Positions 183 through 58,683 of a stretch of DNA of 64,000 nt are shown in pieces. The stretch is taken from positions 64,229 to 128,228 of the forward strand of contig CAWGFA010000012.1 in assembly GCA_963821725.1 (NCBI GenBank), written 5' to 3'. Within the stretch, counting starts at the first letter, position 1; each line of letters starts with the position of its first letter. The notes below the pieces were generated by a model. It was not told the origin of the DNA. It searched no databases and saw nothing but the letters and a program-made list of their open reading frames with translations. The position numbers and the translations under genes were made by a program. The stretch is from an uncultured Acidimicrobiia bacterium (GTDB lineage Bacteria; Actinomycetota; Acidimicrobiia; Acidimicrobiales; JACDCH01).

Positions 183-229
183 ACGCCCGGGCGTTCCACC
201 ACACGAGATGTGGTCAGACGCCCGGGCGT
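183..229 (-). repeat. nested GC-rich hairpin, divergent member of hairpin family H (copy 0)
   Basis: Two copies of the self-complementary 12-mer ACGCCCGGGCGT (183-194, 218-229) flank an inner hairpin ACCACA-cgaga-TGTGGT (198-214). The inner hairpin and the GGGCGTTC/GACGCCC outer stem resemble the elements at 31838, 52405 and 58637. It lies 17 nt after the amidohydrolase stop and about 70 nt upstream of the ATG at 115. Confidence 0.5.
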
Positions 230-1575: not shown

Positions 1576-4500
1576 GTGGGTTTCAACAACCCGGCGATGC
1601 CGTGGTCCGAGCTCGAACGACGTCTCTCCGACAACCGCGTTGCCGGGCGCCCGAGCAACGTACCGCCTTCCGCCAACGGGGGCGACAGCCCCGCCTGGTC
1701 CCGCAAGCGCCAGCCGTTCGAGCCACGGGTGCAGCGGCGGCGAGGCTCGGTGCCCTACGCCGAGCTGCACTGTCATTCCAACTTCAGCTTCCTCGACGGC
1801 GCGTCGCATCCCGAAGAGCTCGTCGAAGAAGCAGCGAACCTCGGCCTCGAGGCGCTCGCGCTCACCGATCACGACGGCTTCTACGGCGTGGTCCGCTTCG
1901 CGGAGGCCGCTCGCGAGATCGGGATGCCCACGGTGTTCGGCTCGGAGCTGAGCCTCGAGCTGCGCAAGCCGCAGAACGGCGAGGCCGATCCCGAAGGGCA
2001 CCACCTCGTCGTGCTCGCCCGCGACCCCCAGGGCTATGCCCGCTTGGCCCGCACGCTGAGCGCGGCACACCTGCGCGGCCGTGAGAAGGGCAAACCCGTC
2101 TATTCGCTGTCCGAGCTGGCGCAGGTGCACGCCGGGCACTGGCTCGTGCTCACCGGTTGCCGCAAGGGGACGGTGCCCCTTGCGCTCGTGCGCGACGGTC
2201 CGGCAGCAGCTGCGCGTGCGTTGGCCGATCTCGTCGCAGTGTTCGGCAAGGACAACGTGGCCGTCGAGCTGTGGGATCACAGTGATCCGCTCGACTCTGC
2301 CCGCAACGACGCGCTCGCTCGCGTCGCCGGCCGCGCCGGTGTCGAATGCATCGCCACCAACAACGTGCACTACGCGCAGCAGTCGCGCCGCCAACTCGCC
2401 ACCGCGCTCGCCGCGGTGCGAGCACGCCGCAGTCTCGACGAGCTCGACGGTTGGTTGCCCGCCGCCTCGACCGCTCATTTGCGCGCCGGCTTCGAGCAGC
2501 AGCACGTGTTCCGCCGCTATCCCGGCGTCGTCGAGCGAGCAGGAGCACTCGGCCTCGAGTGTGCGTTCGACCTCCATCTCGTCGCGCCCGACCTGCCGCC
2601 GTACCCGTGTCCCGACGATCTCGACGAGATGCAGTTCCTCCGCAAGCTGGCCGACGAGGGTGCAGCGCGCCGCTACGGGCCGAGGGGCGATCCCACGACC
2701 GGCAAGGCCTACGCGCAGATCGACCACGAGCTCGACCTCATCGAGTCGCTGGGCTTCCCGGGCTACTTCCTCGTCGTGTGGGACATCGTCGAGTTCTGCC
2801 GCCGGTCGAACATCTACTGCCAGGGGCGCGGCTCGGCGGCCAACAGTGCGGTCTGTTACGCGCTCGGCATCACGAACGCGGACGCAGTGACGCTCGGGCT
2901 GCTGTTCGAACGGTTCCTCTCGCCCGAGCGCGACGGCCCACCCGACATCGACATCGACATCGAGAGCACGCGGCGCGAAGAGGCGATCCAGTACGTGTAC
3001 GAGCGCTACGACCGCGAGCACGCGCGCGCAGGTCGCGAACGTCATCACGTATCGAGCGAAGTCGTCGATCCGCGACATGGCGAAGGCGCTCGGGTACTCC
3101 ACCGGCCAGCAGGACGCATGGTCGAAGCAGGCCGACCCATGGGGCCCGCTCGACACGACCATCAAGCAACAGCAGCACGAGCACCAGATCCCACTGCCGG
3201 TCTTGAAGCTGGCGAAGCAGGTCGAGCACTTCCCGCGCCATCTCGGTATCCACTCGGGCGGCATGGTGATCTGCGATCGGCCCATCGTCGAGGTGTGCCC
3301 CATCGAATGGGGCCGCTTCACCGGTCGCAACGGCACCGGCGACGAGCCGATCCGGTCGGTGCTGCAGTGGGACAAGGACGATTGCGCGGCAGCCGGGCTC
3401 GTGAAGTTCGACTTGCTCGGTCTCGGGATGCTGAGCGTGCTGCACCACACGCTCGACTTCGTGCACGAGCACCACCACGACTCCGTCGAGCTCGCCACCG
3501 TCCCGCAGGACGACGCGGTCTACGACATGTTGTGTCGCGCCGACTCCGTCGGTGTGTTCCAGGTCGAGTCACGGGCACAGATGGCGACGTTGCCGCGCCT
3601 CGAGCCCCGATGCTTCTACGACCTCGTCGTCGAGGTCGCGCTCATCCGTCCCGGTCCGATCCAAGGCGGCTCGGTGCACCCGTACATCCGGCGACGCAAC
3701 GGCTCCGAGCCGGTGACGTACCTGCACCCCTTGCTCGAACCGGTGTTGGAGAAGACGCTCGGCGTGCCGCTGTTCCAAGAGCAGCTCATGCAGATCGCCA
3801 TCGAGATCGGCGGGTTCACACCCGGAGAGGCCGACCAGCTCCGTCAGGCAATGGCTTCGAAGCGGAGCCGCGAGCGCATGGAGCGCATCCGCCAGCGCTT
3901 GTACGACGGCATGGCCGAGCGCGGTGTCGTCGGCGACGTCGCCGATCAGATGTGGGACAAGCTCTCGGCCTTCGCCAACTACGGCTTCCCCGAGAGCCAC
4001 TCCGTCAGCTTCGCCTACCTCGTGTACGCCAGCTCGTGGCTCAAGCGGTTCTATCCCGCTGCGTTCTGCGCCGGATTGCTCAACGCGCAACCGATGGGGT
4101 TCTACTCACCGCACTCGCTCGTGCAAGACGCCCGCCGTCACGGCGTCGAGATCCGCACCCCCGATCTCAACGCCTCGGGAGCCAAGGCGACGCTCGAGAT
4201 CGAGCCCGACATGCAGCTGGCACGTGCGCCCCACGACGCACCGCCGGCGGTGTGGGGCAAGGCCGGTCCTGTCGTGCGGCTCGGCATCGGCTCGGTGCGC
4301 GGCATCGGTGAGGAACTGGCCGACGAGATCGCGGCCGGGCGGCCGTACGAGTCCATGGAAGACCTGGCGCGGCGGGTTCCGTCGCTCGCGCTGCCCCAGC
4401 TCGAGGCCATGGCCACAGCCGGTGCGTTCGGCTGCTTCGCGCACGAACGCCGTGAAGCGCTGTGGTCGGCGGGCGCGGTCGCGCAGACCCGGCCCGACCG

Positions 4501-10522: not shown

Positions 10523-12130
10523 CCGAACAATGCGCGCTCGGCCAGCGCGATCGGCATGCCACCGGAGCCCGCGACCCGGTCGTGGAACTCACGCAAGCTG
10601 TTCTCCTGGGCGAGCCAACGCTCGCGCAAGCGCTCGATTTCGAGTGAGCCGGTGAGGTACGAGGCCGCCTGCGTCGGCCACGCGCAGTAGCGCGTGACCT
10701 CGACGCGAGCCACTGCCTCGGTCAGCGGCGAGTTCGTGTGCATGTAGTCGACGGCCTCGTCGAACGTCATGTCGCCACAGTGCAGGCTCGTGTCGGCCAC
10801 GATGCGCGCGGCGCGGAAGATGCGGGCGGCGAGATGACACAGGTCCTGCGAGGGATCGGTGAAGAAGCCCTGCTCCCGCATCATGCGCTCGGCATAGAGA
10901 GCCCAACCTTCGACGAAATACGGCGTGGTCACGAGGCGGCGGATCGGCGTCGCGTCGGCCTGCAGCCACGCGAAGTGCCAGTGATGTCCCGGGTACGCCT
11001 CGTGGACACTGGTGGTCGCCATGTTCGCGTAGCTGTTGTCCGCGAGCCGCTCGGCGAGATCCTGTTCGGAGGTTCCGTCAGGCGGGTACGGAACGTTGAA
11101 GCGTCCCTTGAGGCTCGGGCGCATGGCCGGAGGTTGGAAGTACGAGGCCACCGCGAGCACTGGCCGCTGGAACGGAGGCGATGGCTCGACGCTGCATTCT
11201 TCCCCGTCGGGGAACGACACCAGGTCGTGCTCGTGCAGGAAGGTTCGGGCCGCCTCGGTCCAGTGCTCGTACCCCTCGCGCATCTCGCCGGGCGTCATCG
11301 GACGGTCCTCGTTGACGGTGTCGAGCCGGGCGCGCCAGTCCTCGTCTCCCCACGCGTCGCGGCACAGCGCCGCGCAGCTCGGTGTCCAGCGATTGGTGTT
11401 GCGCGCGACCGCGCTCGCGCAACGACGCGGCGTCGTCAGCGAGCAGTTCCTTGTCGCGGAGCAGCGCGGAGTAACGCTGCTCGCCGAGGGCCCAGTCGCC
11501 GGTGGCCTTGTCGGCCAGGTCGGTGAGGAACGCGGCGAAGGACTCGTACGCTGCGGCCGCGGCCGCGCCCGCCTCGGCGATCTCGGCTCGACCCTTCTCG
11601 TCGGACACCTCCGGCGGCAGCAGGTCGCGGCAGTACACGATCGCGGCCCGGCACTGTCCCAACGCGCGGTTGCACGAGCAACTGGCTGGCGAGTGCCGGG
11701 GTCGAGGTTGGCACGCCCCTGGTCGAGCACGCTCGCGACCTTGGCCGAGACGGGACACGGCATCGCGCACGAGGTCGGGTTCGGGATGCAACCGCCGCAC
11801 GAACAACGAGAACACGCCCATGAGACCGGCAGACACGTACGAGTCCGGATCGCGGCGCCACCGTTGCCACTCGCGGGTGATCGTCGATCCCCGCAGGCTG
11901 CTGAGGACCAGGTCACGGTCGATGCGTTGGTCGGGGTCGAGGCCGTCGTCGCCGAGCGCCTCGAATCGCTGGATCCAGTCGTCCTCGGCTGCCTCCCGCC
12001 GCGCCCAGCCTTCGGCAGACAGGTCCGGCAGTCGGTCGTCGCGCCCGTCGGCGCCGTGGAAGCTCGCGCCGGTGGGGGACTCGTCGAACATCCACTCGAT
12101 GTATTCGTTCGTCAGTTGCTCGATCGTCAT
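10519..12130 (-). pseudogene. DUF885 family protein, at least four frame disruptions (about 11746, 11698, 11668, 11374)
   Basis: The N-terminus comes from ORF 11078..12130(-) (MTIEQLTNEYIEWMFDESPTGASFHG...). The middle pieces fall in two other frames (AKVASVLDQGRANLDP, then ALASQLL). The C-terminal 300 aa come from ORF 10519..11916(-) and include HEAYPGHHWHF, the DUF885 zinc-site-like motif. Confidence 0.8.
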
Positions 12131-17044: not shown

Positions 17045-17193
17045 GAGCGTCGTCCTCTCGTCAGGTGCGGAGGAAGACCGTTCACCGCCGGTCGACGAGC
17101 GTGTCCCGATGGTACGGGAGGGGTGTGACATCGAGCGGGCCCGGCCCGGTCTGCACGCGTGCGGAGGGGAGGGACGGCAGGATCGTCGGGGAA

Positions 17194-17242
17194 CCTCGGG
17201 TCGATCCCGGGGCTGTGACCCCGCAATCGCACCAACATTCCG
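17194..17242 (-). repeat. REP-like hairpin element family R, copy b
   Basis: The minus strand reads CGGAATGTTGGTGCGATTGCGGGGTCACAGCCCCGGGATCGACCCGAGG. It lies in the divergent spacer between the nuclease start and the cupin start (32 nt from ATG 17274). Confidence 0.7.
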
Positions 17243-18856: not shown

Positions 18857-18882
18857 GCTTGGCAGCCTACGGCCGAGGCGTT

Positions 18883-18930
18883 CTTCGGGTCGATTGCGGG
18901 GCCATGACCCCACGATCGCACCAACATTCG
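18883..18930 (-). repeat. REP-like hairpin element family R, copy c
   Basis: The minus strand reads CGAATGTTGGTGCGATCGTGGGGTCATGGCCCCGCAATCGACCCGAAG. It begins 10 nt after the YeaQ-family stop (18941) and ends 27 nt before the thiolase start. Confidence 0.75.
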
Positions 18931-19415: not shown

Positions 19416-19517
19416 GACTCCATCTTCCCCAGGGGGTGTGACAGTCAAGCCAGGGAGCCGGCGTGCTATTCCCGAGCACCTGCGGCACGCCGGAGGCGCA
19501 GTTCGTGCTGCCGTAGG

Positions 19518-30374: not shown

Positions 30375-31791
30375 TCACGAACCGGCAGCGAGCAGCTCCG
30401 CGTACGAATCCTCGAGGCTCGGTGCGTAGCAGTTCGGGATCGTCGACGGCGGCGACGTCGATGTTCAGTCCCATGTCGAGCGACCCGCCTGACGACAGCA
30501 AGGTCAGGTTGAACGCGGTGCCGCCGGTCGGACCCATCGGATAGTTGGCGACGATCTTGGCGCCGGCGACGTAGAGGTCGAACGGCGCACCTCGCACGTT
30601 GGATGTTGCGAAGTCGACGGTTTCGATCTGCTGGCGCGCGAACCGCACGAGGACCGAGGTCGGCAAGCACGTTCGCGACACCCGCGAACGATTCCGGCCA
30701 TCGCCAGCGATCGTTCCGTCTTCGTCACGTTCAACCGGTCGCGCACTGGCGGCGAAGCGTTCGACCGGGTCGGTGATGCCGACGGGCACGAGGACTCTTG
30801 CCGGTGTGAAGGCGTTGCCACCCATCGAGCGGTCCGTACGAGTGGACACCGGCATCGAGATCCGAAGCTCATCGACGTCGATTCCATTGGCTCGGTGATA
30901 CGCGCCCGCAGCCCCCGCCGCGCCGGCAACGAACAGGTCGTTGATGCTTCCTCCCAGTGCCTTCGCGGCGCGCTTCGTGTCGTCGAGCGGTACGCGCAGG
31001 ACTTCGAACCGTCTGCGCAACGAGCGTTCTGTCCACAGCGGCGAATGAGCCCGATCGGTGACTGCGATTTGACGCGCCAGCTGACTGCATGGATGCAGCC
31101 ACCTCGATGCCGACGGCCGGGATGCGCTCTGGATGGCGTAGCAAGTCGGCGGTTCCGACAGCAGCACGGCGTCCGAGCCCCACTCCGCGGCGGATGTTGT
31201 GCGCCGCAGTCTCGGTCGCGGTGGCGACGAAGCTCGCCGGCGGCTCCGATTCGTCGCTGCGGCTTCGGTCGGCGCCGGCGGATCGTCGGGCGTGCCCTCC
31301 CGGCTGAAGTCGATGAACTCGGCGGACATGCGCACGCCGCCTTCGCCGTCGGTCACGGTGTGATGGATCTTCTGGAACAACGCCGCGCCGCCACTGCCGA
31401 CACCGTCGATGATCGTGAACTCCCACAACGGCCGGGTGCGGTCGAGAGGCGCCGCTTCGAGCACGACCGCGAGGTCGAAGAGCGTCCGCTCGGTACGGGG
31501 CTCGGGCAGCGCGATGTGGCGGATGTGGTAGTCGAGGTCGAAGTTGGGATCGTCCTGCCACTCCGGTGGCGCGAGCCGGCCCAGCGCCGGGACCACACGC
31601 TGGCGCAGTCGAGGCACGACGCTCACGGCATGCGCCAGGCGGGCCCGCAGGCGGGCTGGGTCCGGTGGCTGGTCGAGCAGCGTGACGTTCGCGAACGACG
31701 AGGCGAGATATGGGTCCTTCTCGAGGTTCCACATCAGGGCCTCGACGTCGCTCATCCGGTGCTCGCCGAGCACCGGCCTGGTGGCGGCCAT
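30375..31791 (-). pseudogene. wax ester synthase/diacylglycerol acyltransferase (WS/DGAT) family protein, at least five frame disruptions
   Basis: ORF 30238..31791(-) reads ...EHRMSDVEALMWNLEKDP...LFQKIHHTVTDGEGG, which contains the HHxxxDG catalytic motif. The later parts alternate between frames (RLNVTKTERSLAMAGIV, ...VDFATSNVRGAPFDLYVAGAK...). The corrected C-terminus is SLEDSYAELLAAGS*. Confidence 0.8.
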
Positions 31792-31837
31792 CAGCTCAGG
31801 CTAGTGGGAGGGCGCAGCGCCCAGATCTGCCTGAACC

Positions 31838-31883
31838 GGCGTTCGTCGCCCACACGGCATGTGGGTGATGAACGCCGAAACGG
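31838..31883 (-). repeat. nested hairpin element family H, copy 1 (between the DsbA-like stop and the WS/DGAT start)
   Basis: The minus strand reads CCGTTTC-GGCGTTC-atca-CCCACA-tgccg-TGTGGG-cgac-GAACGCC. The outer stem is 7 bp and the inner stem 6 bp. Confidence 0.7.
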
Positions 31884-31885
31884 GG

Positions 31886-32494
31886 TCAGCGCTTGATCGA
31901 GGTGTGCTTGAACTCGTTGAGGTTGGGCCACGAATCGAGGACGTTCACGAGGCGCTCGATCGTGTCGCGCGACAGGTTCTGATCCGTCCCCTCCGGCGCC
32001 CGATCCATGATGCGGACGAACACGGCCTCGTCGCCCGAGATGAATGTCGGCACCCCCCAGACGCTGTGGCCGGCGACTGCCGCCTCGTGCTCGGTCCGCA
32101 CCTGCTTGAGGGCAGTGCCGTCGTCGATCGCAGAGAAGACCTCGTCGACGTCGACGTCGTTCGTGGCGAGCACGTTGCGCACGACGTCGCGGTCCTGGAG
32201 CTTGAGTCCTTCGTCGTGCCGAGCGGCGAACAGGGCCCGATGGACCTGCTGAAACCGGTCCGGGAACCGATCCCGGACGACGACGCCGGCCTGCAACGCC
32301 ACGATGCCGGTGTCCTTGTCGGGCTCGTCCCACACGTCGGTCTCGCCTTCGGCCACGTGGGCCTGCCCCAACGAGAAGGGCACGTACCGCAGATCCCAGT
32401 CGGCTCCGCCGGCCTGAGCGTTCAGCAGGTGCTCGTGGATGTTGCGGGCGAACGGGCAGCGGTAATCCCAGGTGACGGCGAAAGAAAGGGTCAT
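31886..32494 (-). CDS. DsbA family (thioredoxin-fold) protein
   Basis: Intact 202-aa ORF. MTLSFAVTWDYRCPFARN... resembles the N-terminal active-site region of DsbA/HCCA-isomerase-like proteins. ...VWGVPTFI... lies near the C-terminus. Confidence 0.75.
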   Translation of the reverse strand: MTLSFAVTWDYRCPFARNIHEHLLNAQAGGADWDLRYVPFSLGQAHVAEGETDVWDEPDKDTGIVALQAGVVVRDRFPDRFQQVHRALFAARHDEGLKLQDRDVVRNVLATNDVDVDEVFSAIDDGTALKQVRTEHEAAVAGHSVWGVPTFISGDEAVFVRIMDRAPEGTDQNLSRDTIERLVNVLDSWPNLNEFKHTSIKR

Positions 32495-41738: not shown

Positions 41739-41761
41739 CTGCGCTCGTCCCTCCTGGCGAA

Positions 41762-41809
41762 CTCCGGGTCGATTGTGGGGCTATAACCCCACAATCGAAC
41801 CAACATTCG
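41762..41809 (-). repeat. REP-like hairpin element family R, copy e (best copy)
   Basis: The minus strand reads CGAATGTTGGT-TCGATTGTGGGG-ttatag-CCCCACAATCGA-CCCGGAG. It begins 10 nt after the SDR stop (41820) and ends 24 nt before the acyl-CoA dehydrogenase start (41738). Confidence 0.8.
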
Positions 41810-47982: not shown

Positions 47983-49026
47983 ATGAAGGTCTCGATGCCA
48001 CTGAACTACGCGGGTGGGTTCGAAGCGTCGGCCCGGCAGGTCGTCGAGCTCGAGCACGCGGGTCTCGACCTCGTGTGGGTGGCCGAGGCCTACGGCTTCG
48101 ACGCCGTCAGCTTCATGGGCTACCTCGTCGCGAAGACCGAGCGGGTGCACATCGGATCGGGCATCGTGCCGCTGTACACGCGCACGCCGACCTTGCTCGC
48201 CATGACGGCTGCCGGACTCGACGCGCTCTCGGGCGGTCGCGCCGTGCTCGGTCTCGGCGCGTCGGGCCCGCAGGTCATCGAGGGATGGCACGGCATCCCG
48301 TACGACAAGCCCCTCGCTCGCACACGCGAGATCGTCGACATCTGCCGCAAGGTGTGGAAGCGCGAGGCACCCCTCACCAACGACGGTCCGATGTATCCGT
48401 TGCCGCTGCCGGAGGGGCAGGGCACCGGGCTGGGCAAGCCGCTCAAGATCATCGGCCATCCCGTGCGCGATCGCATCCCGATCTACGTCGCCTCGCTCGG
48501 CGAGAAGAACGTGGCCCTGACCGCCGAGATCGCCGACGGCTGGCTTCCGGTGTTCTTCGTGCCCGAGAAGGCGAAGGACGTGTTCGGCCCTTCGCTCGCG
48601 GCAGGCGCGGCGAAACGTGACCCTGCGCTCGGTCCACTCGACATCTGTGCCGGCGGCTTGGTGTGCATCACCGACGACAAGGCCGAGGCGGAGTCGGTGC
48701 GCGACCTCGGTCGGGCGATGGCCGCGCTGTACATCGGCGGCATGGGCGCGAAGGGCCAGAACTTCTACAACGCGCTCGCCCGTCGTTACGGCTACGACCA
48801 GGAGGCAGAGGAGATCCAGGACCTGTACCTCGCAGGCCACAAGCAGGAAGCGGCCGCGAAGGTCCCGGCGGACTTGCTCGAGCTCACCTCGCTGTGCGGA
48901 TCCGAGGGCTTCATCAAGGATCGCATCGCCGCCCACAAGGAAGCCGGCGTCACCGTCTTGCAGATCACGCCCTTCGGGGAGCGACCGGCGGAGATCGTCG
49001 AGAAGCTGAAGTCCTGGAGCGAGTAG
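47983..49026 (+). CDS. LLM class F420-dependent oxidoreductase
   Basis: MKVSMPLNYAGGF...LDLVWVAEAYGFDAVS...RAVLGLGASGPQVIEGWHG.... Intact 347 aa. Confidence 0.85.
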   Translation: MKVSMPLNYAGGFEASARQVVELEHAGLDLVWVAEAYGFDAVSFMGYLVAKTERVHIGSGIVPLYTRTPTLLAMTAAGLDALSGGRAVLGLGASGPQVIEGWHGIPYDKPLARTREIVDICRKVWKREAPLTNDGPMYPLPLPEGQGTGLGKPLKIIGHPVRDRIPIYVASLGEKNVALTAEIADGWLPVFFVPEKAKDVFGPSLAAGAAKRDPALGPLDICAGGLVCITDDKAEAESVRDLGRAMAALYIGGMGAKGQNFYNALARRYGYDQEAEEIQDLYLAGHKQEAAAKVPADLLELTSLCGSEGFIKDRIAAHKEAGVTVLQITPFGERPAEIVEKLKSWSE

Positions 49027-49043
49027 CGGCAGATGGGAAGGCT

Positions 49044-49071
49044 CCGCACCTCGGGGGGGACTGAGGTGCGG
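49044..49071. terminator. GC-rich hairpin between convergent genes (putative terminator)
   Basis: CCGCACCTC-gggggggact-GAGGTGCGG, a 9-bp stem, lies 18 nt after the LLM stop (49026). There is no U tract. Confidence 0.35.
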
Positions 49072-49153
49072 GCCTCCACCTGAGCAGCACCGCCGCGTGC
49101 CGCTCTCGTCACGATACGGAGCAAAGGTTTCGCGGAGATGAAGCGGGCGTGAA

Positions 49154-50412: not shown

Positions 50413-50947
50413 TTACCTGCGACGCTCCGCGCCGACTAAGGCGACGAACAGCACCGCCGGCTCGGTGCCGGCGTTGCGCCATCGGTGTCGCGTGCCGTTC
50501 TGAACGAAGGTGTCGCCCTTCTTCAGCGTGACCTCCGCGCCGTCGTCGAGCTCGCAGATCACCTCGCCGGACAGCACGACTTCGAAGTCGACCGTGTCGG
50601 TGGTGTGCATGCCGGGATCGTCGGGCTCCATGTGCGCCGCCATGCCCGGCAGCTGTGTCTCCATCTCGGCGAGGGCCGCCCCGACGTCGAGGTCGGAGGG
50701 CAGGTCGACGCCCGCGGGCGCCACCGTGAAGAACCCGAACCGGTAACCGGTCGCCGGCGGGAAGTACGCCGGTGCCGCTGGTGGCTGCCCGTCTGTCGGA
50801 AGGGTGGACGCGACGTCAGAGCCCCACAGCCGGTGGAACTCGTAACCGGGCAACAGGTCGAGGGTGATCGGCGTCGACCTCTTCGTCGGACACGAACACC
50901 GACTTGCCGTCCGCGTTCTGCCCGGTCACCACGCGACGAACCTTCAT
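50413..50947 (-). pseudogene. cupin domain protein, one frame disruption near 50872
   Basis: MKVRRVVTGQNADGKSVFVSDEEVDA joins ITLDLLPGYEFHRLWG... (ORF 50413..50853). The ATG overlaps the WS/DGAT stop (TGATG). Confidence 0.65.
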
Positions 50948-52343
50948 CACGTCACCTTTCGTATCTCGTCGATCCCTTCGAGCAGGCACGCGTGGAACAC
51001 GTCCGGATCAGGGATCGCGGCTGGGTCGGTGTTGACTGCGATCTGCAACTCGTCCAGATAGCTGAGCAACGCGATGTTCGCTGCAGCGCCGGTCATGGGC
51101 GCGAACGCGAACTGCGCTTCCAGCCGCGCGCCCGCGAAGAACACCGGAACGGGAACGCCTGGCACGTTGGTGGCGACGAAGTCGACGCCTCTGAGCATCG
51201 CGCCGAACACGCCCGTCGACAGCGCGGTGGGGAGCCGGTACAGCACGCCGGCGAGCGGCTCGGTCAGCGCAAGTGCCGGCTCGGCGCGTTGCTCGAGCAC
51301 GAGTTCCCGGATCGCTCGCATGCGTTCGATGGGGTCTTCGATCGTCATCGGCACCGCGAACCGCGCCGGCGCGAACTGATTGCCGGCGAGGTCGGCGGTG
51401 TCGTCCGTCCGAACGTTGATGGGCATCGTCATCCGCAAGGCGTCGATGGCCACGCCGTGCCGGTCGTGGTAGCGGCGCAAGCCGCCGGCGACAGCGGCGA
51501 TGAACGCGTCGTTGAGCTTGCCGTCCACCGTGCGAGCCGCTGCTTTCAGCTCCGCGAGCGGCGCCACGATCGTGTCGAACCGGACGCTCAACGAGCGGTT
51601 GGTCATCACCGGGCTCAGCGGTGACGTTGCGGGCGCGAGCATCCGCGCCACGGAGGTCGCGGTGTCGCGCGTCCGGCCGACGACGCCAACGCCATCGCGT
51701 CGCAGCGCTGCCGCGCCCGACACCGCCGATCGGAACGACCGGCGTGCCCGGCCGAGCTGGCGACGGCGCTCGTGCTGCAGCGCGTCGCGCACCCGCTCGA
51801 ACTGGTTCATGACGTGGACCTCGGGTGCATCGGGCACCTCGCGATCGAGCGCGCTGTCGCGTTCGAGGTCGAACAGATGCATCGCGATCTTGATCGCGCC
51901 GACCCCGTCGGTGATGGCGTGGTGGATCTTGATGATCAACCCGGCGCGCCGTCGGCCAAGTCGTCCACGACGGTGAACTCCCACAGCGGTCGCGCCCGAT
52001 CGAAGCCCTGCATCGCGATCGGCTGCGCCATGTCGAGCAGGTCGCGCAGCGAGCCGTCGCCGCCCGCCCTCGTCCACCGCAGGTGGTAGTCGAGATCGAA
52101 GTTGGGATCGACCTCCCATCGCGGTGGCGCGATCGACAGCGGGTTGGACACGACCCGCTGACGCAATCGCAGGACCAGCCGCGTCGCGCGTTCGAGGCTG
52201 TCGGTCAGGCGCTCGCGGTCAGGCGACCGGTCGAGCACGGCGACCGCGGTGATCGTGGACCGCAGCTGCGGGTCCTTCTCGATGGTCCACATGAGCGCGT
52301 CGGCGTCGCTCATCCGGTGCTCGAAGCGCATGGACTCGGGCAT
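50947..52343 (-). pseudogene. WS/DGAT family protein (paralog of 30375-31791), one frame disruption near 51945
   Basis: ORF 51936..52343(-) gives ...FEHRMSDADALMWTIEKDP...RPLWEFTVVDDLADG. ORF 50947..52119(-) gives ...GLIIKIHHAITDGVG (HHxxxDG motif) and continues to the C-terminus. Confidence 0.8.
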
Positions 52344-52404
52344 CGCCCCATTGTCGTGCGCTCGCCGTGCGGACGCACGCCCGAGGCGTCGATCTGCTCG
52401 AACT

Positions 52405-52449
52405 GGCGTGCACAGCCCACACGGGATGTGGGTGATGCACGCCGAAACG
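52405..52449 (-). repeat. nested hairpin element family H, copy 2 (between the VanW stop and the second WS/DGAT start)
   Basis: The minus strand reads CGTTTC-GGCGTGC-atca-CCCACA-tcccg-TGTGGG-ctgt-GCACGCC. The inner hairpin matches copy 1. The outer stem differs at one base pair, changed on both arms. Confidence 0.7.
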
Positions 52450-52463
52450 CAGGACCAGGGGGG

Positions 52464-54181
52464 TCAGCAGCGCACGCCGTCGGCGGGCTGGTACAGCGCG
52501 GACACCGAGTCGTTGGCGACGTGGCCGTCGACGTACGTGCGCACCCGTGGCGTGGTGACCCGTGTGCACACGCCGCTCTTGGCGTCCTGTGTCGGCCCGG
52601 CGGCCACGTCGACGTAGTGCGTCGAGTACATGTGGACCGTCAGCGTCGTCGCGTCGTACGTCGGCCACAACAGGATCCCGTACGGCGTCGAGTTCTTGAC
52701 CTTCAGGTCGGGGCTCGGCCACGAGATGGTCGGCTTCGCGTCCTCGCGGGTAGCGGCTGAGGTACAGCGAGTGCGACTGGTACGACACGAGATCGAGGCC
52801 GGAGAAGAACGAGGCGTTGAACATGGTGGTCGCGAACTGCGACACGCCGCCACCGATGTCGTGATCTTCGGTGGCGTTGTAGATGACGGGCGCATCGACG
52901 AACCCACGCGCCGCGGTCCGCTGACCGACGAAGCCGTTCACGGAGAACGTCTCGCCCGGCTGGATCACGTGACCACGCACGATGTCGGCGATCAGGTGGA
53001 TGTTCGTGACGCGTGGCTGGCAGCACGCATGATGCGTCGTCGGCCCGAACATGTCCGGCTGCCCCACCTCCTCGACGATGCCGAGTTGTTGCGCGGCCTC
53101 GGTCGTGAACTTCGGACGTTGCGTGACGACCGACAGCGTGAGCCGCGGCGTGTTGGTCTGCAAGGCGGCGAAGACCTTCTGTGACGCTCCCGGTTCGCAG
53201 CATCCGGCACCGTCCTGGCTCGGATGGAGGACCGGCTTGCCGCCCTCGACGGTGAAGCTCGCGTCGACCGGACTCTGGGCCACGGTCCCGAACAGGGCAG
53301 AGATGCCGGCGACCGCGGCCGCGTCGTCGATACCGACCGTGAGCGCACCGTCCTTCGGCACTGCTCGGAGCCACGACGCCACCGCCGCCGGGTCGAGGGG
53401 CTTGGTCTGGGAGCCGATCGTCAGGGTCAAGGAGTGATGGGCGACCGTGTTGGCTTCGTCCGCGATCCGTTCCGCGTCGGCGTCGGTGAACTGTGGGGCG
53501 AGCGCGCCCTGGTCGACATGGACTTCGATCGGCTTCGTCGACGACGTGCCTGGAGCTGCGGCGACGAGCGCGTCCGCGAGCTGGTTCGGTTCGATCCCGA
53601 CCCCGGGCTTGCCGGGGACGACCTCGACGGCGCCTGCGGCCGAAGCCTTGATCGACGGCTCGGTGGGATCGACGTGCGCGTTGCCCTCGACGGCGCGGGC
53701 ACCGTCGGCGGTCACGAGACGATCGATCTGGAACGCCGGCGCGACCTTCCGCGTCGAGACGAGCGACGCGACCCAGCGGAACGGCCGCACGAGGACGTTG
53801 TCTTTGTGTCCCACCTTCATGACGGCGTCGACGGTGTTCGGCTGGTCGATGCTGAGACCGAGCGCTTCGGCCGTCGTGTCGTAGCTCGCGTGCGGCGTGA
53901 CGATGTGCACCGCCTTGTTGCGGGCGGCGTCCGCCTGCCGGCTGACTTCCGCGGCAAGGTCGTCGTGGGAGTCGCCCCCGACGCCGTGCCCCGCCAGCGC
54001 GACGTTGCGGGCCACACGTCCGCCCTGGCCCCGGACGTCGAGGCCCCACGCCGGCGACCAGCAGCACCACCACGGCCACGGGCGTCACCACCAGGAGCAC
54101 GCGTCCCCATCGGCGACGGCGGAACAGCACGCGACGGGGCACCCTCCACGATGGCACGGAGACTGGCGCCGACCCCGTCAT
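52464..54181 (-). pseudogene. VanW family protein with an N-terminal TM anchor, two frame disruptions (about 54033 in a GGGG run, and about 52737)
   Basis: MTGSAPVSVPSW...VLLVVTPVAVVVLLVAGVG is in the frame of ORF 52703..55042. The long central part is in ORF 52219..54015. The VanW core is GETFSVNGFVG...GGGVSQFATTMFNASFFSGL. The tail is in ORF 52464..52907. Confidence 0.75.
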
Positions 54182-55159: not shown

Positions 55160-56081
55160 TCCCGGCGCCGACCGGGACCGTCATCCTCGGCCGACGGTCG
55201 CCGGCTGTCGTACGACGACGTCGGCGACCCGTCGGGCGCACCGGTCGTGTACCTCCACGGCTGTCCCGGACTGCCGGCTCACCCGCCATCCCGACGACGG
55301 GGTCGCCACGCGCGCCGGTGTCAGGTTGATCGCGGTCGACCGGCCCGGCTACGGCGCGAGCGATCGCTGATGACGACGGCGACGAGAACAGCGCTCGCGG
55401 CTGACGTCGTCGCGCTCGCCGACGCGCTCGACATCGATCGCTTCGCGGTGCTCGGTTGGTCGTCGGGCGGTCCGGGAGCGCTCGCGCTGGCCGCTCGCCA
55501 CCCGTCGCGAGTCGCGGTCGCAGGCGTGGCGGCAGGACAGGTGCCGATCGAAGCCGATGCCGACCCTGAGGTGCGCGCCGCGCTCGACCCGGTGATCGCA
55601 GCCCGCACGGATGTCATCGACGAGATGACACCGGACGAGTTCGCAGTCTTCGGTTGCACCGCTCGTCGCCGCGCCCGGGACTGCACGATCGAGCTCGCCC
55701 GTGACCTGGTCGTCGACGGCAAGCCGGCCGAGTACCTCCACGACCTCGACTCGGTCGACGGCCTGCTCGACCAGCTCGCGCTCGGGACGATGGCAGCAGT
55801 CGAGCACGGCCTCGCCGGCGTCGAGCGCGACCTGCGCGCCATGGTCTCGCCGTGGCCGTTCGACGCTCTCGAGCATCACCACGCCGGTGGTCCTCTGGTA
55901 CGGATCCGACGACGCGATGTTCGGTCCGGCCGCCGGACGCTGGCTGGCCGAGCGGATCCCGACCGCTCGGCTCGAGGTCGTCGAGGCGTCGCACCTGCTG
56001 CCCCTCGTACGGTGGGAGTCGATCCTGACCGTGCTCTCGTCACATCTCGACCGAAGGGAAGAACATGCCACTCAACCATGA
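55156..56081 (+). pseudogene. alpha/beta hydrolase, at least four frame disruptions
   Basis: Pieces: VIPAPTGTVIL, DGRRLSYDDVGDPSGAPVVYLHGCP, GVRLIAVDRPGYGASD, ALDIDRFAVLGWSSGGPGALALAA (nucleophile elbow GWSSGG), and PVVLWYGSDDAMFGPAAGRWLAERIPTARLEVVEASHLLP (ORF 55701..56081). Confidence 0.65.
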
Positions 56082-57633: not shown

Positions 57634-57685
57634 CGAATGTTGGTTCGATTGTGGGGCTATCGCCCCACAATCGACCCGAAGTTGG
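57634..57685 (+). repeat. REP-like hairpin element family R, copy f
   Basis: CGAATGTTGGT-TCGATTGTGGGGC-tatc-GCCCCACAATCGA-CCCGAAGTTGG. It lies between the nucS start (57606) and the aldo/keto reductase stop (57698), both on the minus strand. This copy is therefore antisense to the flanking genes. Confidence 0.8.
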
Positions 57686-57697
57686 AGCTGGTCGACG

Positions 57698-58598
57698 TCA
57701 TCTCGGGATCGGAAAGATCACGTCCTCGTCCGCCATGGCGTCGGCCGCTTCCGCGCGCTCGACGGCAGCCATGGGGGCGACCCCTTCGGCGGCCGCGAGC
57801 ACGCGGGGGAGCAGCCCGAGATCTCCCGGCGTGCAGAAGGCATGGACGCCCGGCGTCGACAGTGCGAACGACACGCCACGAGCGATCGCATCGTCGTCCT
57901 GTTGCGGCTCGTACCAGGACGTCGCCCAGCGCTCCGCAGTTGCGGGATCGCCGGCCATCACATCGGCCAGCGGCCGCCGATCGGGCCAGGGCCGGCGAGC
58001 GACGGCCTTGATGACCATGACACCGAGATCACGCTCGGTGCACAGCGCGAGCAGCTCCTCGGCCGCCTCTCGGTACATCGGGTCGGCCCACAGCCGTGGG
58101 TAGATCGGGAACATCACCGTGTCGAGGTCGTAGCGGCGAAGTGCCTCGAGGAACGTCGTCGGCACCGAGAGGTCGTGCCCGGTGATGCCGGCGAACCGAC
58201 ACCTGCCTTCGTCGCGGAGCCGGAGGATGCGCTCGATCCCCGGGGCTCGGTTGTCGAGCTCTTCGAGCGTGGTGACCCCGTGGGCCTGGTACAGGTCGAG
58301 GACGTCACAGCCGAGCAGCCGGCGGCTCTCGTCGAACTGGTCGACGACACCGTCGGGATTCGAGCGCAACGTCTTCGCGGCGACGAACAGCCGGTTACGC
58401 ACGGCGGGGATCGCCGGACCGACTGCTTTCTGTGCGTCTCCGTACTGCGGCGCGATGTCGAGGTGGTTGACCCCGCGCTCCATCGCGCAGCGCGAGGCCC
58501 CGCGCACCATCGTCTTCGGACGACGCCCAGAAGGCTGCGCCGCCGAGGATGGCGACGCTGCTCTCGTGCCCCGTCCGACCCAGTCGCCGACGCTCCAT
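57698..58598 (-). pseudogene. aldo/keto reductase, one frame disruption near 58530
   Basis: MERRRLGRTGHESSVAILGGAAF (ORF 58395..58673 frame, GGAGGGGG upstream of ATG 58598) joins ...AMERGVNHLDIAPQYGDAQ... in ORF 57698..58666. Confidence 0.75.
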
Positions 58599-58636
58599 CG
58601 CTGCCCCCTCCGACCGACCGCGCCCAGCTCGTTGCT

Positions 58637-58683
58637 TGCGTGCAGAACGGACCCTATAGGGCCCACCCCGCACGCCGAAACGG
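58637..58683 (-). repeat. nested hairpin element family H, copy 3 (between the ABC1-kinase stop and the aldo/keto reductase start)
   Basis: The minus strand reads CCGTTTC-GGCGTGC-ggggt-GGGCCC-tata-GGGTCC-gttct-GCACGCA. The leader and outer stem match copy 2, but the inner hairpin is different. Confidence 0.6.

Follow-up and report, generated by a model that had tools for sequence, protein, structure and literature searches.

Repetitive extragenic palindromes (REPs) are short, imperfect palindromes that occur in many copies, singly or in clusters, mostly outside genes and near gene 3' ends (PMC3733652, PMC2817692). In the text of one survey (Di Nocera et al. 2013, PMC3733652) two superfamilies are defined by an unpaired motif, GTAG or CGTC, at one end, and the Rickettsia palindromic elements (RPEs) RPE-4 and RPE-6 are equated with the CGTC repeats (PMC3733652). 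Actinobacteria are mentioned neither in the text of that survey, which lists its species in figures, nor in the text matches of a literature search. Here we describe a hairpin-forming element from an uncultured Acidimicrobiia bacterium. The analysis centers on a stretch of 64 kb (contig CAWGFA010000012.1, positions 64,229 to 128,228; hereafter the window), in which three copies lie between genes on the minus strand. A preliminary description of this DNA had offered intrinsic terminators, leader structures or operators, and a REP-like family as possible identities. We consider it likely that copies 1-3 are solitary representatives of a palindromic DNA repeat that is dispersed, in multiple copies, in uncultured soil Acidimicrobiales, a small, non-autonomous element of the REP-like kind, comparable to the REPs of E. 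coli.

The three copies share an exact 11-mer, CGTTTCGGCGT, found on the minus strand at 31872-31882, 52439-52449 and 58672-58682. Three occurrences compare with 0.09 expected in the window (G+C 68.6%), and none of 100 shuffles reached three. On the 3' side of each 11-mer is a nested hairpin in which GGCGTKC and GMACGC(C/A) enclose an inner stem-loop, with fold energies of -30.4, -28.9 and -31.9 kcal/mol for copies 1, 2 and 3 (z = -3.7, -3.9 and -3.2). The likeness among the copies also takes in the tail on the 3' side (GCC-R-GTT-S-G). Between copies 1 and 2 the identity is ~87%; both belong to the same apical subfamily and share six more bases (CAGATC) 3' of the tail. The hairpins are followed by GGTTCAGGCAG, AGTTCGAGCAG and AAGCAACGAGC, without a U-tract; a T-run lies 5' of the stem instead. 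The CGTTTC head is 3, 14 and 9 nt from the stop codon of the upstream DsbA-like, VanW-like and ABC1-kinase ORFs (open reading frames), and the GMACGCC arm is 46, 61 and 39 nt from the ATG of WS/DGAT-1, WS/DGAT-2 and an aldo/keto reductase. These distances agree with the 2-17 and 39-70 nt given in the preliminary description, and the exact 11-mer, the folds and the sequence bear out its account of three minus-strand copies with a shared architecture; its start coordinates were 1 nt too high. The VanW assignment is weak, the Pfam score being below the curated cut-off and the ORF truncated.

The preliminary description had treated the copies as a family, and additional copies do exist outside this locus. 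A scan of a genome collection with the pattern CGTTTCGGCGTKC-N18-34-GMACGC was dominated by 38-nt matches to a conserved coding stretch of gcvP (glycine dehydrogenase). Among the matches listed, at least five are real loci (L007, L020, L028, L072 and L113; L numbers denote loci outside the window). All are from metagenome-assembled genomes (MAGs) of Acidimicrobiia and have the same head and basal stem as the window copies, with a different or similar inner hairpin. A metagenome scan in which TTTCGGCGTKC and GMACGCCRGTT were fixed and the inner 20-32 nt were free gave 80 matches on 79 stretches. About 40 of them, in soil contigs with a G+C of 0.66-0.77, are 47 ± 1 nt long and have a clean inner hairpin; the others are low-GC chance matches or coding sequence. 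The element is carried by ~20 contigs of one metagenome sample. Viral contigs searched with the same kind of pattern, as a negative control, gave 111 matches, none with the clean hairpin of the family, and the element is not phage-linked.

For the DsbA-like and ABC1 proteins of the window, the best-matching homologues (86-100% identity) belong to MAGs that bear the names Acidimicrobiales or Acidimicrobiaceae, and a close relative is the Acidimicrobiia MAG MFD04850.bin.2.5 (CAWDIH01; contig_5619, 831,378 bp). One of the metagenome populations with the element, that of sample Ga0070741, is itself an Acidimicrobiales relative; near dsbA and ABC1, its contig Ga0070741_10000470 shows synteny with the window.

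Based on a covariance model built from 43 family members (R1), we counted ~67 distinct elements in 46 related loci that had been preselected by pattern match, with overlapping opposite-strand hits merged. In the 64-kb window R1 recovers exactly three members, copies 1, 2 and 3, at 68, 62.4 and 40.6 bits (E = 3e-20, 2e-18 and 4e-11). The motif had not been recognized in the preliminary description, and comparison with Rfam 15 likewise gave no match in the window at gathering thresholds; at lax E-values around copy 1 only generic miRNA-precursor hairpins appeared, at no more than 19.6 bits against cut-offs of at least 40. A described RNA family was rejected on this basis.

The alignment of the family (A2; 43 sequences, 56 columns) resolves a core of ~47 nt that consists of an unpaired (C/G)GTTT head, an 8-bp basal stem, a 10-bp apical stem, a loop of 5-6 nt and a GTT(S)G tail. 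The (C/G)GTTT(C) head is present in all members. The basal stem, CGGCGTKC/GMACGCCG, is GC-rich and conserved; columns 8-15 are invariant apart from K, an invariance partly imposed by the search patterns, and the K/M pair covaries (UA 29, GC 11). The apical stem varies in sequence by subfamily and its pairing is kept. Over the 18-bp helix as a whole, 88.5% of cells are paired and 11 of the 18 pairs have changes on both sides. The covariation score is 0.399, compared with 0.122 in shuffles (0 of 500 reach 0.399) and 0.07-0.14 in slid-partner controls. G·U or U·G combinations (27) and A·C or C·A combinations (29) are equally frequent, and thus nothing points to selection of one strand as RNA. A further helix formed outside the core by the two flanks was not significant (mean of cognate duplexes -12.2 kcal/mol, of non-cognate duplexes -11.1 kcal/mol; p = 0.09), and the bias of the flanks is compositional, with 46% C in the 5' 10 nt and 44% G in the 3' 10 nt. 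The subfamily with a CCACA...TGTGG apex includes copies 1 and 2 and elements in L007, L028, L113, L200, L139, L140, L150, L165, L166, L178 and L180, and the apical subfamily of copy 3 recurs in L020.

The genes that adjoin the element are unrelated in function. They include inositol-1-phosphate synthase (ino1) and a DUF5318 protein, a PQQ propeller and a STAS protein, a ring hydroxylase and a luciferase-like monooxygenase, a metallophosphatase and LigD, a PMT-type glycosyltransferase and a glyoxalase, as well as a thiolase-like protein, UppS, FlhB and cytochrome b. Genes around the A2 elements were called by a crude method based on third-position G+C. Where a gene was called on both sides, 11 elements lie between convergent genes, 10 between tandem genes in the same orientation as the element, 9 between tandem genes in the opposite orientation, and 4, between divergent genes. 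Most copies occupy short spaces between genes. Many elements are 0-26 nt from a stop codon, and placement favours gene 3' ends; the copy in L007 sits between divergent genes. With respect to transcription, the family as a whole is oriented about at random, and the co-orientation of the three window copies is not a family property.

Copies occur singly, as do the three in the window, or in clusters, which are common. Thirteen loci carry 2-4 copies each with a period of ~70-71 nt, and adjacent pairs are head-to-tail in 13 cases, head-to-head in 3 and tail-to-tail in 1. Apical subfamilies are mixed within single arrays (for example in L176), which argues for repeated insertion beside resident copies as well as local duplication. 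We judge the inserted unit to be ~70 nt, based on the array period and on one insertion inside a gene. In L199 an element lies within an intact 747-residue biotin carboxylase (acyl-CoA carboxylase alpha subunit), where residues 163-190 comprise 28 residues compared with 4 in the best PDB homologue, 9yx0_D. Nucleotides 2628-2711 encode the extra residues and enclose the second of the two elements of this ORF, and the net insertion of ~72 nt is near the array period. In the CobN of L160, a tandem pair falls in a stretch of 105 residues compared with 41 in Mycobacterium-type CobN (7c6o). Such intragenic insertions were seen at two loci, both in relatives and neither in the window.

Comparison of orthologous sites reveals turnover. 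The interval from the dsbA stop to WS/DGAT, in which copy 1 lies, holds the element in MFD04850.bin.2.5 as well (L200, 50 bits), with two compensatory double changes relative to copy 1, GTTC/GAAC to GTGC/GCAC and CCCACA/TGTGGG to GCCACA/TGTGGC. In L201, a relative about equally distant, this interval contains an unrelated hairpin, in L204 it contains a perfect palindrome that belongs to a second family (described below), L202/L203 have no hairpin and an extra ORF instead, and in three more syntenic contigs the spacer between dsbA and WS/DGAT is only 26-34 nt, which leaves no room for a hairpin. Retention beside WS/DGAT orthologs, a question raised in the preliminary description, is therefore seen in L200, whereas the element is absent from L201 and L202/L203 and the short spacers could not hold it. 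At the site of copy 3 the element is present in MFD04850.bin.2.5 (L316, 41 bits) and absent in the Ga0070741 relative (L317). The unrelated hairpin of L201 is a palindrome, AAATCCCACTCA...TGAGTGGGATTT, with an inner hairpin (10628-10676, plus strand), and no second copy of it was found among the sequences examined.

The family thus comprises subfamilies, is independent of orientation, lies mostly outside genes near 3' ends, is clustered, is gained and lost between relatives and occurs occasionally in frame in genes. REP-like or RPE-like small repeats behave in this way. Of the options in the preliminary description the REP-like one gains support, because the element is found in many unrelated contexts and in both orientations, forms tandem clusters, is present or absent at orthologous sites, is tolerated in frame in genes, and shares the window with another family of the same architecture. 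The elements may spread in trans as single-stranded DNA, with the foot of the hairpin and its GTT-bearing flanks recognized by a trans-acting enzyme. By analogy with known REPs, the mobilizing enzyme would most plausibly be an HUH/Y1 transposase of the REP-associated tyrosine transposase (RAYT) or IS200/IS605 type. Apical pairing may be kept since the hairpin itself, not a particular sequence, would be read by that enzyme or by the DNA-repair machinery. Where the window copies are transcribed, they would place a stable 3' hairpin without a U-tract on the dsbA, VanW-like and ABC1 mRNAs. Such a hairpin could shield the mRNA upstream of it or slightly reduce read-through, as a by-product rather than the reason for conservation.

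Several observations weigh against a REP-like mobile repeat. In samples not selected for the element, the density is only about one copy in 20-50 kb: the 64-kb window has 3, and loci anchored on dsbA have 1 in ~54 kb. A relative with 88-95% protein identity keeps copies 1 and 3, which gives no evidence of recent mobility in this lineage, and the window copies, all co-oriented with their flanking genes and right behind stops, would also fit a selected RNA role there. The head is not the GTAG or CGTC tag that defines both described REP superfamilies, and the arrays are head-to-tail, not alternating as in bacterial interspersed mosaic elements (BIMEs) and REP doublets (REPINs). Searches of the fetched loci and the window by tblastn with RAYT, IS200 and IS608 TnpA queries, of very low power, found no transposase (RAYT, IS200/IS605 or other) next to any copy. 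Finally, the conservation of head and basal stem in A2 is in part a product of the search patterns, which left the apical part and the length unconstrained.

It is unlikely that the hairpins are instead selected intrinsic terminators of the U-tract-less, I-shaped kind, or 3'-end stabilizers, forming a terminator module shared by Acidimicrobiales genes. Their placement accords with that idea, as all window copies are on the coding strand, 3-14 nt past a stop and ahead of the next start. Their hairpins are very stable, many copies elsewhere are similarly close to a stop, convergent sites outnumber divergent ones (11 to 4), and relatives without the element at the dsbA site often bear a different strong hairpin (L201, L204). 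Termination alone does not fit as a reading of the copies, because no window hairpin is followed by a U-tract (the T-run is on the 5' side), because some copies lie in divergent promoter regions (L007), and because others lie inside the intact biotin carboxylase and CobN ORFs, where an efficient terminator would be harmful. Orientation to the upstream gene is also near random (10 against 9), the equal numbers of G·U and A·C give no signature of a transcribed strand, conserved flanks and subfamilies are unexpected of terminators that evolved independently, and in several syntenic relatives the spacer at the site of copy 1 is too short to hold a hairpin. The terminator option of the preliminary description is possible at most as a local by-product, and a canonical intrinsic terminator was rejected since the hairpins lack a following U-tract. 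Recognition of the hairpins by a host DNA- or RNA-binding protein that organizes the chromosome or mRNA (a nucleoid-associated, gyrase or IHF-like protein, as at Escherichia coli BIMEs, or an RNA chaperone or RNase) would account for a conserved basal stem and flanks with a free but paired apex, as recognition of structure plus foot should give, for the persistence of copies 1 and 3 in a relative and for the negative, low-power transposase search. As the origin of the family we hold it to be quite improbable, since no candidate protein is known, and in-frame insertions, arrays of mixed subfamilies and replacement by other palindromes point to insertional dynamics; as an added host use it is compatible with a REP-like repeat.

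The preliminary description had also considered 5' leaders or operators, which here would be cis-regulatory elements that co-regulate WS/DGAT-1, WS/DGAT-2 and the aldo/keto reductase, for example in a lipid-storage regulon. We found no support for this and regard it as very improbable, although two of the three window copies precede WS/DGAT paralogues, belong to one subfamily and share CAGATC. Elsewhere the element adjoins unrelated genes, either before or after them, its orientation is not fixed and no Rfam family matches it. It is absent from the syntenic dsbA-WS/DGAT loci L201 and L202/L203, and the spacers of three further contigs are too short for it. A separate conserved motif, CCACTAGCCT, is found in the window and every syntenic relative 6-9 nt ahead of the WS/DGAT-1 ATG, with or without the palindromic element, and it is a better candidate than the hairpin for control of WS/DGAT-1. 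Within it, TAGCCT agrees with TANNNT, the -10 consensus of Actinobacteria; together with the short spacing to the ATG, this suggests that the WS/DGAT-1 mRNA may be leaderless. That the similarity of the copies is the echo of a recent duplication of the element together with its WS/DGAT locus, the circumstance that the preliminary description had named as fatal to a family, has practically no probability left. The ~87% identity of copies 1 and 2, both located before WS/DGAT genes, reflects a shared subfamily and not a duplicated locus, which is excluded because the WS/DGAT-1 and WS/DGAT-2 proteins are only 31% identical. In addition, copy 3 precedes a different gene and the same subfamily occurs beside unrelated genes in other genomes.

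The second REP-like family has the same architecture and four copies in the window, and it is probably the one that the preliminary description counted as its first REP-like family. Its members have the head (C)GAATGTTGGTKCGAT, a variable apical hairpin, such as TGTGGGGC-TATC-GCCCCACA, and the tail ATCGACCCGRAGTT. In L204 its palindrome stands just after the dsbA stop, the site occupied by copy 1 in the window. Tentatively, and with more doubt than confidence, the family studied here and the AATGTTGG family might together form an undescribed superfamily of actinobacterial REP-like elements, with a common foot, units of ~70 nt, arrays, in-frame tolerance and non-classical mobility. Its features would be a conserved foot of GTT-containing unpaired flanks and a GC-rich basal stem below a free but compensated apical stem. 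Preferential insertion beside existing copies would produce the head-to-tail arrays, and in-frame insertions would be tolerated in core enzymes. Mobility of the elements would depend on an enzyme different from the classical RAYT of GTAG REPs, or their pairing would be kept by hairpin-templated repair and not by selection.

A hairpin at 183-229 had been listed in the preliminary description as a looser fourth copy. It is real and very stable (-50.4 kcal/mol), and shares with the family only an apical CCACAT-N3-GTGTGG, which has three exact matches in the window compared with 0.01 expected. R1 scores it at 6.9 bits (E ~7), compared with the 40.6 bits or more of copies 1-3, and we do not count it as a member because of this score. 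A marginal R1 match at 19453-19497 on the minus strand (12.4 bits, E ~0.1; CTCCGGCGTGC...GCACGCCGGCT) has the basal-stem arms and no inner pairing, and may be a decayed copy or a chance match. The coordinates of the elements and of associated features are collected in the table.

Table. Coordinates of the palindromic elements, their parts and associated features. Positions without a locus name refer to the window; cells are empty where no value applies or was recorded.
Feature	Position	Strand	Description
Copy 1	31834-31882	-	CGTTTC head, 18-bp nested hairpin, GGTT tail; between DsbA-like stop (31886-31888) and WS/DGAT-1 ATG (31789-31791)
Copy 1, unpaired GTTT head	31878-31881	-	Immediately 5' of the basal-stem arm
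Copy 1, 5' arm of conserved basal stem CGGCGTTC	31870-31877	-	Alignment A2 columns 8-15, pair counts
Copy 1, variable apical hairpin ATCACCCACAT-GCC-GTGTGGGCGAC	31845-31869	-	CCACA...TGTGG subfamily; compensatory changes
Copy 1, 3' arm of conserved basal stem GAACGCCG	31837-31844	-	Sequence, alignment A2, pair counts
Copy 1, GTT tail	31834-31836	-	Sequence
Copy 2	52401-52449	-	Apical subfamily of copy 1; between VanW-like ORF stop and WS/DGAT-2 ATG (52341-52343)
Copy 3	58633-58682	-	Apical subfamily GGGCCCTATAGGGTCC, deviant tail GCACGCAAGCA; between ABC1-kinase stop and aldo/keto-reductase ATG (58595-58597)
Elements in an intact ORF	L199 1439-1478 and 2653-2707		Two copies in biotin carboxylase, translated in frame as extra loops
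Elements in an intact ORF	L160 3227-3350		Tandem pair in CobN, translated in frame as extra loops
Second family	57636-57683	+	Window copy
Second family	41760-41807	-	Window copy
Second family	18881-18928	-	Window copy
Second family	17192-17239	-	Window copy
Second family	L200 ~3133-3180	-	Copy outside the window
Second family	L204 3649-3696		Copy outside the window
Second family	L020 from 1602	+	Copy outside the window
Second family	L150 ~771	-	Copy outside the window
TAGCCT within CCACTAGCCT	31798-31803	-	CCACTAGCCT also at L200 ~10690-10700, L201 ~10683-10692 and L202 ~4053-4062
"Looser fourth" hairpin	183-229	-	Long, near-perfect; flanked by two copies of palindrome ACGCCCGGGCGT

Several flanking genes have irregular ORFs. 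WS/DGAT-2 (50947-52343, minus strand) is split into the overlapping ORFs 51936-52343 and 50947-52119 in different frames, and the VanW-like (52464-52907) and amidohydrolase (246-755) ORFs, both on the minus strand, contain only the C-terminal part of their Pfam domains. These look like frameshifts, either errors of long-read MAG assembly or pseudogenes. In WS/DGAT-1, residues ~141-260 form a stretch of low third-position G+C that aligns poorly. The WS/DGAT downstream of dsbA in the Ga0070741 relative (L204, 3700-4130) is present only as fragments whose remnants match the C-terminal motif (...GAPFDLFIAGAKIEANYPMGPTGGTAFNITLLS), and appears to be a decayed pseudogene beside the second-family palindrome. 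In L007 (~2260-2560), the element lies between two copies of a direct repeat, ...GGCGTCGCTGCGCTCCT(A/G)(C/T)CTCCGC...GGCCCGACG..GGCGCTTCCC; this arrangement may reflect an additional family of repeats, or a composite unit situated in the divergent intergenic region. Two other strong hairpins in the window, found in a 56-nt fold scan at 49029-49084 (-36.5 kcal/mol) and 55185-55240 (-39.4 kcal/mol), overlap no gene called by the crude method. The former starts right after the stop of the plus-strand ORF 47983-49026. They are unrelated in sequence to both repeat families and probably ordinary terminator-like stems.

Other candidate identities for the element were considered and rejected: a SigF or ECF promoter, because the spacing does not fit; a DosR box at copy 3, because of sequence mismatch; split parS half-sites, because only L113 is symmetric; and a CRISPR array, because repeats within one array differ.

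For annotation, these results mean that the hairpins are better labelled dispersed repeats than WS/DGAT regulators or evidence of a lipid regulon, and R1 is ready for masking or a census. The elements form a new family, of an already known kind, in a lineage that has received little study. It would add REP-like elements to a poorly studied, uncultured class of Actinobacteria, a class unmentioned in the text of the REP survey (PMC3733652). Three traits are unusual and could help to identify the enzyme that moves such elements: the apex is highly variable and compensated above a foot that is conserved, the arrays run head-to-tail, and biotin carboxylase and CobN carry in-frame insertions. We consider the value of the family moderate, as elements of this kind are well known and it decides no question of long standing.

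Among known systems, the I-shaped terminators of high-GC Actinobacteria resemble the element in being stable, GC-rich hairpins a few nucleotides past a stop without a U-run. They differ in that terminators are not sequence families with conserved flanks, whereas the element is found in either orientation, between divergent genes as well as within ORFs. Integron attC sites are likewise imperfect palindromes after an ORF, with conserved outer parts, a variable center and GTT at the 3' end. They have complementary RYYYAAC...GTTRRRY ends and form cassette arrays, whereas the element does neither; we rejected attC because its ends, GTTTC... and ...GGTT, are not complementary and its copies are dispersed among housekeeping genes in conserved synteny. 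Mycobacterial interspersed repetitive units (MIRUs), which measure 40-100 bp, are intergenic repeats of Actinobacteria arranged head-to-tail between genes that run in one direction. The element is similar to them as an actinobacterial intergenic repeat that forms head-to-tail arrays, but MIRUs do not fold as palindromic hairpins, have small overlapping ORFs as their defining feature and show no sequence similarity to it.

The closest likeness is to the REP, BIME and REPIN group, in the imperfect palindrome, the unpaired tag at one end, the short tail, the subfamilies and the occasional intragenic units (PMC3733652, PMC2817692). In the broad sense of REP, the element is a palindrome with an 18-bp helix, located, apart from the intragenic copies, outside genes of unrelated function; at ~47 nt it is longer than the usual 20-40 bp. 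Its stem compares with 5-13 bp in the GTAG repeats and 8-9 bp in the CGTC repeats of the survey text, and its tag is (C)GTTT, not GTAG or CGTC. Only the basal 8 bp are conserved in sequence, while the apical 10 bp are highly variable and compensated. In contrast to the head-to-head dimers of REPINs and the alternating units of BIMEs, its clusters are mainly head-to-tail with a period of ~70 nt, and no RAYT was found beside it in the fetched loci and the window by the low-power tblastn. RPEs are palindromic repeats reportedly tolerated both in intergenic DNA and as in-frame insertions in genes for conserved proteins. The in-frame insertions of the element in otherwise intact conserved genes, at two loci (L199 and L160), resemble this behaviour. 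RPEs are AT-rich, ~100-150 bp long and belong to Rickettsia, whereas the element is GC-rich, ~47-72 nt long and actinobacterial.

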